Sequence record: NC_028780.1
Strand: one strand, 5' to 3'
Origin: Escherichia phage slur07
DNA: 64,000 nucleotides
Under the pieces are notes generated by a model. It saw only the letters and a list, made by a program, of their open reading frames with translations. It was not told the origin of the DNA and made no database searches. Positions 5,939 through 43,471 of the stretch are shown here, piece after piece. Positions within the stretch are counted from its first letter, which is position 1. Each line of letters begins with the position of its first letter. A program made the translations under genes and the position numbers.

Positions 5939-8900
5939 ACGAATATAAACGTTTGGGGCATTTATATTCATGTCAGAATAAGTGTCACCCGTTTGGAATC
6001 TCATTCGGCGTGCGGCATTAGTAATGATATCAAGAACTCCGTCAGCGGATTGTTTAATTCCGGTATCATTATCACCAAATGCTATACTATTTCCACCAAG
6101 TGCGTTATTGATATTAATACCAAATGAATTTGTTTGATTAATACCAGCTACAGTAGCATTATTTACTACAAAGCGGTTAGCTCCACCTGGAGTTTTTTCA
6201 AAGTAAGCAATATAGTTAGTTTCATCTGCAATTTCAATGCGGTTACCGCGAGAAGCATCACCAGCATGAAATATTCTCATATTTCTCGGGTTAGCACCAG
6301 ACTTATCAAAGTTAATACTTCCATTATTTTTGATGTTAAGGCCATTATAAAACTCTGATACCCCAGAAACGCTCATAGAGTTTGAAATAGTTACTTTACC
6401 TGAATCGATATTGATAGAAAAAGGTCTCAAGCTATTATAAGAACCGGAGGCTTTAGTTTTATCAGTATCGGTATTTTTATCTGTTAATAATATATGGAAC
6501 GTAGTACCATCATTATAAAACAGAGCAGCTGCAGAGCCACTTTCGTCGCCGTTAGATTTGTGACGGAATCCTATAGTAGTATTTGCCACAAAAGTTGCAT
6601 TTGTAGAAATATTAGAACTACCTGCATCAAAAACGCCTGAGCTATTATTAAGAAGTTTAAAAACACGACCTTTAACAGTATCTACAGGAAGCTCTTCTAC
6701 TGGTGATTGTGTAGGCCCATATAATCCATGAACTACTACTGAAGCGTTTTCTGAAGTGCTATATTCTAATGTAAGTCTATTTAAATAAGTGCCACAATTA
6801 ATATAAACATCATACTCATCGCCTGAGGTATTAATATACGCAATATCTTTAATAGCATCTGTTTCGCGTTGCCATAAAACACCATTAATTCCTTTAGGGC
6901 TGTTATTACCTGAACGCAATACAATTTCATTAATTGTTGCTTGTCTAAAAGTACCAACGTTAAATCCAGAACCACCAGTAATTTTAAATTGAACTGTAGC
7001 CACACCTTGAGGCATAGTTACTGTTGCCAATTTATACCAACCGCTATCGACAGAATAATTAATCCAGCCGGTAGTTACTTTACGGTCTAAAGTAGTGTTT
7101 AAGTTAGCAAAATTACCAGAACCGTTGGTAATATTACCGTCAGTTCCTAGTTGGGCATTTCCGACTTTAAGAGGTTTACTGATTGACACGAAATTATCGC
7201 TTATAACAAGACCGTGTCCATAAGATTGACTATAAAGCGATAAATCACTTCCAGCGCCACCAAGACCAACATACCACGATCTAATTCCAGCTTTAGAACC
7301 TTGTAAATAATTAGCAGAAGAAGATGAAGGAGAATCTAGAGTAAGCGCTGCATTACGTTCATTAATAGTTACTGGACATATCATTTTAATAGTTTTAAGA
7401 CTATTACTTACTTGTAATAATCCTGTACCAGATCCAGAATCTCCTAAATGAACATCATGCGACATTTTAACTGTGCCGGTGTTCAGTTCTATTATCAATG
7501 GTCTAAGATTACTTATACCACCTGATTCTCCAGCATCTTTAAGAGTTGGAATAATATAAAAGTTACTTTCAGAACGACGGAAAATTGCGCCGTATTCAGC
7601 ATTCCAAATTCTTAATGCGTCAGCTGTTCCACCAATTTTTACTTGGCCTGTAATAGAAGAACCACCTTGGACAAACAAACCGTTAGACATAGTAACATTG
7701 CCACCAAAAGAACCTGTACCGGAGGCACTTATATTACCAAGGCCTATGATATGGCCTGTTTCGACAGTTCCGTTAAATTTAAAGTTAACCGGACCTACTG
7801 TTTGACCTGACGCAGGATTAGTACGTTGAGCGTAGAAATAATAACCTTGTGAATCTGAAACTTCGAATACAGTTTCTCTATTACCCTTTTCAGCGTTAAA
7901 TGAATTACCCCATGCTTTAATGGTTACGGTATTTTTATTCTGACCATTACGAGTACCTGCATCCCAGTTAATGGTTTTGGTACCATCTACACCGGAAGGA
8001 GCTTTAAACGATAAAGCATTAGTATTATCATCACCATTTAAAAACAAGCCCGTACGCATAGAAATACGCTGGGTGGAGTTAATTGTTCCGTCTGCTCTAA
8101 TAGCAACGCTATTAGAACCGGTTTTAATATCTAAAATGCCAGGCTCAACAAGAAGCCCATCACCCATACTAACGGACATACGACCTGTACCACGGAAATA
8201 GTGATACATCTTAGCATTGCTGCTATATCCGATATGAGTCTGTCCATCGCCGTTATTATTACCATCAACATCGGTACGCGCAGTAAACATTGCTTGGTTA
8301 TTATTTGGGAAATCCCAAGTAGAACCGGAATCTCGACTATAACCAACCATCAATTTTTTAGTACTATTAATACCATTATTCAAAATGGTAGCAGATGAAA
8401 TACCGTTAGCCATCAGGTCATAAACGCCATCGCGGACCCATTTAATACCGGTATCGTTATCGCCAATCGCAATACCAATAGAAATTGCAGAATCTAAAGG
8501 ATAACGACCATTTGTACCACTATCAGGAAGACCTACAGAAATAGATTTACCTGCAGTAATACGTCCAGAGGTATCAAACGCCCACTGGAAAGACGAAGGT
8601 CCTACACCAGTCCACCAAGAAATTTCTTGCGGCTTACCTTTTCGACAATCAACAATTTCATGGAAAATACTTGATGCGCTTGATGCACGTAATTTACGCA
8701 AATAGTTCAATCCATTTGTAGTATTGTCGGAACCATCGGCCGGTGGGTTATAAACCCAGGTAGGTAAAGAAACAATGTCATAACCCGCGTCATTATTCGG
8801 GATAAAGGTTTTCGTGCTTATGTTAATATTTTTTGTGTTGACACGTGGCGCAGAAACTACCCCAGTAGCCGAATTAATATTACCAGAAGCAGAAATATTT

Positions 8901-27303: not shown

Positions 27304-27333
27304 GTTTACAAGTCCCTCGTGTTGTGTTATAGT
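27304..27333 (+). promoter_or_regulatory. early promoter (repeat family 2, copy A)
   Basis: -35 GTTTACA 27304-27310, 17-bp spacer, TGtTATAGT extended -10; 54 bp with one mismatch to 43120-43173. Confidence 0.5.
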
Positions 27334-27364
27334 AGTCTTACTAACATAACATGAGGACTTTATG

Positions 27365-33940: not shown

Positions 33941-34117
33941 ATGGCAAAACAAGTTAAAGCAAAGAAAGCAGTTGAAAAGAAAGTTGGTGATTCTAAACGC
34001 GCTGGCTACAAGCGTGGGTCGAACTCTCGTATCAATCAAACTGTTGAGAAGATCATGCGCCGAGCACGTGCGGTTCTTCGAGATGATGCTTCTCGTTTTG
34101 GTAAGCAGAAAGCATAA
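33941..34117 (+). CDS. small lysine/arginine-rich basic protein (58 aa)
   Basis: ATG 33941 (MAKQVKAKKAVEKKVGDSKRAGYKRGSNSR...), followed immediately by a strong terminator; the ORF-track start at 33899 is probably too far upstream. Confidence 0.45.
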   Translation: MAKQVKAKKAVEKKVGDSKRAGYKRGSNSRINQTVEKIMRRARAVLRDDASRFGKQKA

Positions 34118-34122
34118 GTTGA

Positions 34123-34147
34123 GGACTCCTTCGGGAGTCCTTTTTTA
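34123..34147 (+). terminator. intrinsic terminator with UUCG tetraloop
   Basis: GGACTCC-TTCG-GGAGTCC followed by TTTTTTATTTT. Confidence 0.7.
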
Positions 34148-34170
34148 TTTTCCAAAGATTGCATAAAGTT

Positions 34171-34204
34171 GTTTACAGTATAGCTCCTTTGTGATAGTAT
34201 TATC
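34171..34204 (+). promoter_or_regulatory. candidate early promoter
   Basis: -35 GTTTACA at 34171-34177 with downstream A/T-rich -10 candidates (TAGTAT/TATTAT). Confidence 0.4.
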
Positions 34205-34227
34205 TTACACAAACAAAGGAGAATAAA

Positions 34228-34560
34228 ATGAAAACGATTAATCTGAACGCTGCAGTTAAAACTAAATGCTTCAATGGTAAATATGATGAAACTATGTGGT
34301 TCTTAATGGCAGTTGAAGGTGATATTATTGAAGTAGAAACAACAGAAGGTATGGGAACAGATTTCACCTTTACAATTCAAGTTCATAATTTCTTTACTGG
34401 TTGGATTTATGAATTGAATACAGTAATCGTTGGAAAAATTGAACAAAATGAATTAGGCGAATGGCATTATGTTACAGCTCGCCAACGTGCAGAACGCTTA
34501 ATTGAGAAGATGAAAAAAGTTGGTAAACTTGACATGCAGCATTGGAAAGTAGTAAAATAA
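34228..34560 (+). CDS. hypothetical protein
   Basis: 110-aa ORF with SD AAGGAG upstream. Confidence 0.55.
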   Translation: MKTINLNAAVKTKCFNGKYDETMWFLMAVEGDIIEVETTEGMGTDFTFTIQVHNFFTGWIYELNTVIVGKIEQNELGEWHYVTARQRAERLIEKMKKVGKLDMQHWKVVK

Positions 34561-34562
34561 TT

Positions 34563-34603
34563 GTTTACTTTGGTACAGGATATGATATTATATACCTGTA
34601 CCG
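34563..34603 (+). promoter_or_regulatory. early promoter embedded in a stem-loop
   Basis: -35 GTTTAC at 34563-34568; 8-bp inverted repeat GGTACAGG (34572-34579) / CCTGTACC (34595-34602) with the A/T-rich -10 candidate TATTAT in the loop. Confidence 0.45.
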
Positions 34604-34627
34604 CAATTAAACATCTTGGAGAATAAA

Positions 34628-34993
34628 ATGAACTACATCAACTTTGAACGTAAATATGTTTCTAATGGTATTGCAGGTTCTATTGATACTATTTGCCTCT
34701 GGAAACATCAAAACGGATCAGTATGCGAAATTGAACAGTATATGACTCCTAACTACGTTTATATGCGATTTGAAAACGGTATCACGGTTTCAATCACGAT
34801 GGAAGGTTCCAACTTCAAAATCGCTCTGGATGATGATTTCCGTCAACGCGATTTAGGGACTCATCCTTGCTGGAATGGTGCTAATCGTAAACTCTTAGTT
34901 AAAACTTGGATTCGTCATATTCTGAGTAACAGAGCTAAACCTGAGCATCTTGAAGCAATCTTTGATGTAGTTCTTAACGAATTTGATATTTAA
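34628..34993 (+). CDS. hypothetical protein
   Basis: ORF with GGAG SD before ATG 34628 (MNYINFERKYVS...). Confidence 0.55.
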   Translation: MNYINFERKYVSNGIAGSIDTICLWKHQNGSVCEIEQYMTPNYVYMRFENGITVSITMEGSNFKIALDDDFRQRDLGTHPCWNGANRKLLVKTWIRHILSNRAKPEHLEAIFDVVLNEFDI

Positions 34994-43120: not shown

Positions 43121-43149
43121 TTTACAAGTCCCTCGTGTTGTGTTATAGT
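43120..43149 (+). promoter_or_regulatory. early promoter (repeat family 2, copy B)
   Basis: 54-bp near-identical copy of 27304-27357; -35 GTTTACA overlaps the TAG stop of the alt paralogue. Confidence 0.5.
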
Positions 43150-43180
43150 AGTCTTACTGACATAACATGAGGAACACAAA

Positions 43181-43471
43181 ATGAAATCTTCTTTACGCTT
43201 TTTAGGTCAAGAACTTGTAGTTGAAGGCGTTATTCCTGTTGATAATGCTTTTAATGAAGCAGTTTACGATGAATTTATTAAAATTTTTGGAACAGATAAA
43301 AAGTTCGGAATTTTTCCTTCTGAAAATTTTTCAAAGCCAGAACAGACTGAAAGTATTTTTCAGGGTGTAGTAACAGGTAAATTTGAGTCAGAAGCTCCGG
43401 TAAAAATTGAAGTTTATATTGAAGACAGTTTAGTTGCTTCAGTTTCTGCTTTCATTTCATTCCGTAAATAA
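43181..43471 (+). CDS. hypothetical protein
   Basis: 96-aa ORF with SD GAGGAA upstream. Confidence 0.5.
   Translation: MKSSLRFLGQELVVEGVIPVDNAFNEAVYDEFIKIFGTDKKFGIFPSENFSKPEQTESIFQGVVTGKFESEAPVKIEVYIEDSLVASVSAFISFRK

Follow-up and report, generated by a model that had tools for sequence, protein, structure and literature searches.

A 64,000-nucleotide (nt) stretch of Escherichia phage slur07 (NC_028780.1; referred to below as the window, and read on one strand, 5′ to 3′) contains, at positions 34,563 to 34,603, a putative early promoter of gene 30.7 in which the −10 element lies in the loop of a perfect 8 base pair (bp) inverted repeat. We propose, with somewhat more confidence than doubt, that this site combines the sigma-70 early promoter of gene 30.7 with a boundary hairpin formed on read-through RNA and with a patch of homology, in the manner of the composite elements known as PeSLs (promoter-early stem-loops, strong sigma-70-type early promoters with a stem-loop). 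The site itself is ordinary, being a T4 early promoter of an already described composite type. A sequence-only reading of the same DNA had missed two things: comparable repeats recur at T4-type early promoters, and the site marks a recombination junction.

The sequence-only reading had described a GTTTAC −35 element followed by a perfect 8 bp inverted repeat with an A/T-rich −10 candidate in its loop, and direct reading and a repeat finder both bear this out. The arms, GGTACAGG and CCTGTACC, are 100% complementary over 8 bp and stand 15 nt apart, with TATTAT (34586-34591) between them. The assignment to the early class is well supported by the full T4 signature, namely GTTTAC(A/T), a 16–18 nt spacer (16 nt here, with the −35 taken as TTTACT), TGn, TAnnAT and A/T-rich upstream DNA (AAAATAATT), as well as by an intergenic position and by conservation across genera. 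There is no MotA TGCTT box at the promoter, and a MotA-dependent middle promoter was dropped as a reading for that reason. The window belongs to a T4-type myovirus; over 1.5 kb around the site its identity is 98.6% with T4 and 99.8% with phage vB_Eco_CP, and at the site itself the T4 sequence is identical. The plus strand of the window is the T4 early strand, and the promoter lies on it in the same orientation as the early genes, in the 67 bp gap between genes 30.8 and 30.7 within the 30.x cluster of small open reading frames, 3 nt past the 30.8 stop codon and 60 nt ahead of the 30.7 ATG. From the usual distance of 7 nt after the −10, transcription is predicted to start at G34598 or A34600, inside the 3′ arm.

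The predicted start separates two kinds of transcript. Because the 5′ arm would precede it, RNA begun at the 30.7 promoter could not form the hairpin, which would arise only in RNA from upstream promoters. Both arms would be present together on read-through RNA alone, for example on transcripts from the 30.8 promoter 390 nt away, where the hairpin would stand just past the 30.8 stop codon and 15 nt ahead of the 30.7 Shine-Dalgarno sequence. We suggest that the repeat is a selected, RNA-level boundary hairpin marking the end of the 30.8 cistron, and that it may serve as an attenuator or as a barrier to 3′ exonucleases. Downstream of it lies a GGAG that fits the motif of RegB, an endoribonuclease that cleaves GGAG within early Shine-Dalgarno sequences (PMC3014915). 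The hairpin would also distinguish two mRNA populations. What the analysis shows directly is the anatomy of the sequence, its conservation, the genome-wide recurrence with covariation and the recombination breakpoints; promoter activity, the start site, action in RNA rather than in DNA and the role of the hairpin are inferred. Published RNA-seq data, in which loss of dksA shifts 30.8 by log2 −1.02 and 30.7 by +0.51, are consistent with separate control of the two genes.

Folding and chance expectation give a first indication of where the information in the site resides. Secondary-structure prediction, put forward in the sequence-only reading as a check, showed that the single strand folds better than shuffled versions as RNA (z = −3.3) and as DNA (z = −4.6); in the RNA fold the stem reaches 13 pairs, interrupted by one bulge, through additional A-U and G-U pairs. 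The bare 8 bp repeat is unremarkable, since about 26 perfect repeats of at least 8 bp are expected per window: with loops of 3–20 nt, 59 distinct repeats were found against 25.6 ± 5.4 in a first-order Markov simulation. Window repeats with at least five G/C per arm are enriched (10 versus 0.7 expected). The informative point is the placement of the repeat across the −10, as the chance that arms flank the −10 of an early-promoter match is ∼0.6% per promoter under the cross-pair null described below. An Rfam scan of the hairpin returned no family, and its one sub-threshold, microRNA-like match (E = 0.31) was taken as chance. Three more copies of CCTGTACC occur at 7422, 7713 and 8184, within 760 bp of one another and with no inverted partner near; these probably represent a repeated coding motif.

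Comparison with related phages shows a conserved promoter core. Orthologs were drawn from IMG/VR and GenBank phages and aligned. Across the 16 aligned sequences upstream of 30.7 the −35 TTTAC is invariant (16/16), and 13 distinct sequences carry a 30.7-type promoter, including those of T4-type phages (Tequatrovirus), RB69 (Mosigvirus) and VR25 (Gaprivervirus). Among these 13, TTTAC-TTTGGTACAGG and CCTGTACC are invariant apart from one C to T change in the 3′ arm of a single ortholog, which keeps a G.U pair in the sense RNA. Five loop positions vary and both flanks diverge strongly. In RB69- and VR25-type sequences the repeat is lengthened to 11–12 bp (TTTGGTACAGGT / ACCTGTACCAAA).

The sequence-only reading had also called for a search for the same architecture elsewhere in the genome. 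On the T4 early strand, 38 candidate early promoters were obtained by requiring the motif TT[TG]ACN-N16-18-TANNNT upstream of a Shine-Dalgarno sequence and an ATG, and a replicate scan of RB69, limited to the early-gene regions at 1–78 kb and 122–167.5 kb, gave 39. Chance was assessed with a cross-pair null in which each spacer is re-paired with the downstream region of another promoter (5000 permutations). In 8 of the 38 T4 candidates, versus ∼0.45 expected, the −10 is bracketed by a perfect repeat of 8 bp or longer whose first arm falls within the spacer and whose second arm follows closely on the −10; 0/5000 permutations reached this count, and the excess is seen in RB69 too. At a threshold of at least 6 bp, 16/38 T4 candidates have such a repeat. 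When the spacer is instead allowed to form an RNA duplex with its own leader, the mean energy in T4 is −11.0 kcal/mol compared with −7.1 for permuted pairs, and 14/38 candidates reach −12 kcal/mol or lower. At this cutoff the controls yielded 2/73 (the same motif elsewhere), 0/38 (DNA preceding the −35 against the leader) and 1/38 (spacer against coding sequence). RB69 replicates the T4 result, with means of −9.35 observed and −6.68 permuted kcal/mol and 0/5000 permutations reaching the observed value.

The stems that enclose the −10 hold a fixed register. For T4 and RB69 together, at least five contiguous Watson-Crick pairs in that register are present at 12/75 TTTAC[AT]-N17-TANNNT sites, versus 0.85 expected. 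These stems differ in sequence yet covary, with a score of 0.564 against 0.293 for shuffled sets and 0.10–0.22 when the pairing is slid, although the set was selected on its inner five pairs, so that pairing there follows from the selection. Sense-strand RNA pairs better than antisense in 15/21 strong cases, a bias that comes mainly from the class of promoters in which the Shine-Dalgarno sequence is paired. In these two genomes the spacers of about a third of the candidates are complementary to their own leaders. Orthologous promoters in T4 and RB69 keep pairing with different sequences: at regB the arms are CCTCTTGACTG/CAGTTAAGAGG in T4 and TCTCCTCTAGTTG/CAACTAGAGGAGA in RB69, and denV is similar. 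RB69 also holds a large promoter family with TAGGACT-atgt-TATAGT-AGTCCTA.

Two classes of pairing between spacer and leader can be distinguished. In one, which includes regB, denV and 30.8, the 3′ arm covers the Shine-Dalgarno sequence. In the other, which includes the 30.7 site and about a quarter of the T4 candidates, the 3′ arm begins 0–3 nt past the −10, leaving the −10 in the loop and the ribosome-binding site free. Read-through RNA is predicted to raise the cost of opening the ribosome-binding site by at least 3 kcal/mol, and typically by 8–18 kcal/mol, in 13/38 T4 candidates, and the reverse occurs in none; gene 49 was recovered as a positive control, at +12.6 kcal/mol. For 30.7, opening the stretch from −15 to +3 relative to the AUG costs 1.7 kcal/mol whether in its own or in the read-through transcript, and for its T4 ortholog the cost is 2.4 in the former and 1.0 in the latter. 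Occlusion of the 30.7 ribosome-binding site was rejected because the opening energy is not raised on read-through RNA. At the neighboring gene 30.8, the promoter spacer GCTCCTTTGTG is complementary to AACAAAGGAGA, which holds the Shine-Dalgarno sequence of 30.8, with a duplex energy of −13.8 kcal/mol, and the opening cost is 0.3 kcal/mol in the 30.8 transcript versus 12.2 in read-through RNA. Two near-identical early-promoter cassettes, TTTACA AGTCCCTCGTGTTGTGT TATAGT AGTCTTACT.., are found 15.8 kb apart at 27305-27364 and 43121-43183. Each has a spacer complementary to the Shine-Dalgarno region that follows, with a duplex energy of about −21 to −22 kcal/mol and opening costs of ∼2–3 kcal/mol in its own transcript and ∼18–19 on read-through.

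We raise tentatively, and with more reserve than conviction, the idea that these patterns reflect a general design rule of T4-like early promoters, whereby an RNA helix takes its 5′ strand from the promoter spacer and its 3′ strand from the leader, such that read-through RNA would fold differently from promoter-started RNA. We did not find the rule stated in the literature consulted, which does not extend to the older T4 literature. Within the same scope, the class that pairs the Shine-Dalgarno sequence may be under-described, because the 2010 paper on PeSLs never mentions translation (PMC2839356) and a review of post-transcriptional control in T4 lists late-promoter cases only (PMC3014915).

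The 30.7 promoter also marks a recombination junction. Around the conserved core the flanks form a mosaic, with six different pairings of four upstream types and four leader types, and in many of the phages compared, which include JK1 among those with mosaic flanks, the alignment to the window starts exactly at the −35. Phage T2 (PV648363, about 480–612) lacks gene 30.8, and its 30.8 promoter and leader are fused to the 30.7 open reading frame within the repeated sequence GGAGAATAAAATG, forming a junction that corresponds to a precise deletion between two regulatory repeats. In the Mosigvirus G2285 (MK327933, about 600–681) a chimeric promoter precedes 30.7. Up to the crossover, which falls at the −10, its −35 and spacer are similar to those of T4 denV, and beyond it comes the 30.7-type downstream arm AGACTTGTACCA. 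The Enterobacter phage KMB20 (Karamvirus; OL828291, about 540–611) has a different early-type promoter before its 30.7 homolog, and the spacer of that promoter, CTCCGTTGTAT, is perfectly complementary over 11 bp to ATACAACGGAG, which holds the Shine-Dalgarno sequence of the homolog. We suggest that the conserved core of promoter plus hairpin acts as a homology patch at which T4-like phages recombine gene modules.

It is useful to compare the site with systems in which promoters and stem-loops are already known to be combined. Arbiol et al. defined PeSLs in RB49 and phi1, where the stem-loops lie mostly between the −35 and −10 or overlap the −10, and proposed that they attenuate upstream transcription; one RB49 stem-loop cut downstream lacZ expression as much as rrnB T1, and PeSL cassettes were shown to undergo recombination, the crossovers falling either within the loop or between the Shine-Dalgarno and −10 boxes (PMC2839356). 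Comeau et al. extended PeSLs to the T4/PST pair, with the consensus TTTACW-N17-TAYWAT (PMC4122927), and T4 early promoters have been described as UP/−35/TGn/−10 promoters (PMC2988021). The 30.7 promoter fits TTTACW..TAYWAT and the UP/−35/TGn/−10 description. As in PeSLs generally, a sigma-70-type early promoter that is intergenic and A/T-rich upstream is joined to a stem-loop and leads, through a Shine-Dalgarno sequence and an ATG, into a small gene of unknown function, in a variable region and at deletion, replacement or chimera breakpoints between related phages, and the promoter frame is repeated in the genome, as the candidate sets from T4 and RB69 illustrate. Its stem-loop lies over the −10, a position that ranks among the two most frequent in RB49 and phi1, whereas in the T4/PST pair the stem-loops are drawn just upstream of the promoter. 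Further differences are a stem of GGTACAGG in place of the G-run/C-run stem of RB49, a 16 nt spacer compared with the 17 nt of the consensus, and a doubtful capacity for termination, an activity shown for one RB49 stem-loop only, given the lack of a U-tract at 30.7. On its sequence features the site has everything that characterizes a PeSL, and we class it as a variant with the stem-loop over the −10.

A second group of relatives consists of the T4 genes e, soc, 49 and I-TevI, in which a late promoter lies inside a hairpin whose helix hides the Shine-Dalgarno sequence or AUG (PMC3014915). As in those genes, the promoter DNA at 30.7 encodes the 5′ strand of a helix, so that long upstream transcripts would fold and proximal ones, given the predicted start, would lack the 5′ strand. 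In contrast to them, the 30.7 promoter is early, its helix ends 15 nt before the Shine-Dalgarno sequence, and there is no occlusion. The neighboring 30.8 promoter shares their geometry, but is early. Compared with Rho-independent terminators, the 30.7 hairpin is similar in containing G+C and in following directly on a stop codon, and dissimilar in its lack of a U-tract, its long A/T-rich loop and its overlap with an active-looking promoter. The early promoters of phage N4 also contain a short DNA inverted repeat, and there the virion-carried phage RNA polymerase reads an extruded small hairpin with a 3 nt loop. The presence of a short inverted repeat in the promoter region of a phage early promoter is common to N4 and 30.7, but the latter has all the sigma-70 elements, and a hairpin would destroy rather than create them.

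Several observations weigh against a selected boundary hairpin at a functional 30.7 promoter. A literature search found no mapping of transcript starts or ends for this promoter, and the hairpin has neither a U-tract nor a computed influence on access to the 30.7 ribosome-binding site. No compensatory change was found in the core 8 bp among the 13 orthologs, and selection for pairing at 30.7 is therefore inferred from conservation and from the behavior of the class. In G2285 the inverted repeat is destroyed and a promoter-like site remains, which shows that a promoter can exist without the repeat. The promoter sets are motif-scan matches and not mapped promoters, and many early promoters are paralogous cassettes, so the common register comes partly from descent. 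In the −10-enclosing class, G.U exceeds A.C next to Watson-Crick runs by 11 to 6 (null fractions 0.20 and 0.12); because this difference is not significant, it does not decide between RNA and DNA for the class.

Against this background, the alternative that deserves most attention is that the repeat itself has no function here, having been inherited with the cassette or consisting of spacer and start bases kept for RNA polymerase, with complementarity incidental. The invariance of the core without compensation, the number of repeats that chance supplies and the survival of a promoter-like site in G2285 all suit this view, and the mosaic flanks mean that the orthologs may be linked by recent recombination rather than by long independent descent. 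We nevertheless consider it unlikely: −10-spanning repeats are enriched ∼18-fold in T4 and again in RB69, the arms of the class differ and covary, relatives extend the same repeat to 11–12 bp by adding pairs on both sides, and positions −26 to −19 are invariant while loop bases vary. Bases in the spacer of sigma-70 promoters are not normally constrained in sequence. Somewhat further from favor is an action in DNA, a possibility raised in the sequence-only reading, in which supercoiling would extrude a cruciform with the −10 in single-stranded loops, and the structure would modulate or switch off the promoter or become a target for junction-cleaving or recombination enzymes. The repeat is indeed perfect, but an 8 bp stem with a 15 nt loop is a poor cruciform former. 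The strong DNA fold relative to shuffles and the strict register of the class relative to the −10 are both compatible with a cruciform, and the comparison of G.U with A.C does not favor RNA; the same register would equally follow if the loop were the smallest that accommodates TGn and the −10. In G2285 and in the PeSLs, crossovers fall in the loop or in the region of the −10 (PMC2839356), and how T4 early promoters are shut off is still not fully understood (PMC2988021, PMC3014915), yet homologous recombination in a conserved 40 bp patch needs no cruciform. On balance we think an action in DNA improbable.

The sequence-only reading had also suggested a terminator for read-through from upstream, and the strict form of this idea, a Rho-independent terminator for transcripts from the 30.8 promoter, seems to us very improbable. 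It draws on the published interpretation of such stem-loops, including the RB49 element that lowered lacZ like rrnB T1 (PMC2839356), and on location, as the hairpin starts 12 nt past the 30.8 stop codon, or 2 nt if the outer imperfect repeat is counted. It also draws on a canonical terminator being present within 110 nt upstream at 0/9 −10-enclosing T4 promoters versus 9/29 others (one-sided p ∼0.06), a contrast that is a weak hint in favor of the boundary-hairpin role as well. However, no U-tract follows the stem: T4-type phages have GCAATTAAAC (tail GCAATTAA) at this point, and relatives have AACAAA or AAATAA. The nominal loop is 15 nt, and a terminator scan that did call the canonical terminator lying 450 nt upstream made no call here. 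The RNAs of 30.7 and 30.8 are equally abundant 5 min after infection, a comparison confounded by the promoter of 30.7 itself. At most, the hairpin would be an attenuator or boundary hairpin in read-through RNA. A comparably slim prospect is that the hairpin is a 5′-terminal stabilizing stem-loop on the transcript of a second promoter near the end of 30.8, TTGACA-N18-TAAAAT at 34529-34558, with a start near 34565. This candidate matches 11/12 sigma-70 consensus positions, the best match in the 10 kb scanned, and its transcript would carry the whole hairpin with the 5′ arm ∼7 nt from the 5′ end. It nonetheless lies in coding sequence, in the last codons of 30.8, is changed to TTGATA..TGAAAT or absent in orthologs that keep the repeat, and has an 18 nt spacer and no −35 of the GTTTAC form typical of T4 early promoters. 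The sequence-only reading's suggestion of a protein-binding site fared worst: that the palindrome is an operator for a dimeric DNA-binding protein regulating the 30.7 promoter is hardly credible, even though its perfect dyad symmetry is centered on the −10, a classical operator position. The inverted repeat GGTACAGG...CCTGTACC occurs nowhere else in the window or in T4, the half-sites are separated by 15 variable bases, and each promoter of the class has different, covarying arms, which is the signature of a nucleic-acid structure and not of a shared protein site.

The features of the region are collected in Table 1. The outer imperfect repeat is confined to T4-type sequences and is not conserved in RB69- and VR25-type orthologs, where it is the core repeat that extends. 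An identical string, GGAGAATAAAATG, holds the GGAG of both 30.7 and 30.8, the latter at 34217-34220. The terminator after gene 30.9 overlaps a sub-threshold Rfam match to the Atu_C8 small RNA at 34073-34156 (31 bits versus a gathering score of 50, E = 0.0011), which most likely reflects just a hairpin and T-run.

Table 1. Features in and around the 30.7 promoter (window coordinates).
Feature	Position	Strand	Remarks
Intrinsic terminator after gene 30.9	34121..34152	+	GAGGACTCC-TTCG-GGAGTCCTT then T-run; terminator scan; same hairpin in T2
Gene 30.8 early promoter (candidate)	34172..34200	+	TTTACA-N17-TAGTAT; nearest upstream source of read-through RNA to the 30.7 hairpin
Gene 30.8	34228..34560	+	110 aa; TAA stop 34558-34560; Pfam PF06019, E = 2.4e-58; T4 annotation
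UP-element-like upstream region	34540..34562	+	A/T-rich, ..GGAAAGTAGTAAAATAATT; direct reading
Outer imperfect repeat	34562..34613	+	TGTTTACTT / AATTAAACA; would lengthen the hairpin in read-through RNA; T4-type sequences only
−35 element	34563..34569	+	GTTTACT; sigma-70 hexamer TTTACT at 34564-34569; GTTTAC at 34563-34568
5′ arm	34572..34579	+	GGTACAGG; within promoter spacer, about −26 to −19; repeat finder
Extended −10	34583..34591	+	TGa 34583-34585 then TATTAT 34586-34591; lies in loop
3′ arm	34595..34602	+	CCTGTACC; about −3 to +5; repeat finder
30.7 Shine-Dalgarno sequence	34618..34621	+	GGAG, RegB-type cleavage motif; 15 nt past hairpin; direct reading
Gene 30.7	34628..34993	+	121 aa; ATG at 34628; Pfam PF06919, E = 8.1e-53

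The value of the 30.7 site lies in its being a clean, conserved example of a promoter and an RNA or DNA structure packed into 40 bp. It is useful for asking what stem-loops that lack a U-tract do, and for studying how regulatory cassettes act as crossover points that shuffle small genes, as the T2 deletion, the G2285 chimera and the mosaic flanks illustrate. The genome-wide complementarity between spacers and leaders may be more valuable than the site itself: it is specific to one strand, it covaries, and in many cases it masks the ribosome-binding site on read-through RNA alone. From it come a hypothesis, open to testing, that early gene expression is insulated promoter by promoter, and a rule by which T4-like early promoters could be annotated and engineered. 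If true, such a design rule would make the translation or the mRNA fate of every immediate-early gene depend on the promoter of that gene, and it might be one contributor to the sharp and as yet unexplained fall in early protein synthesis.

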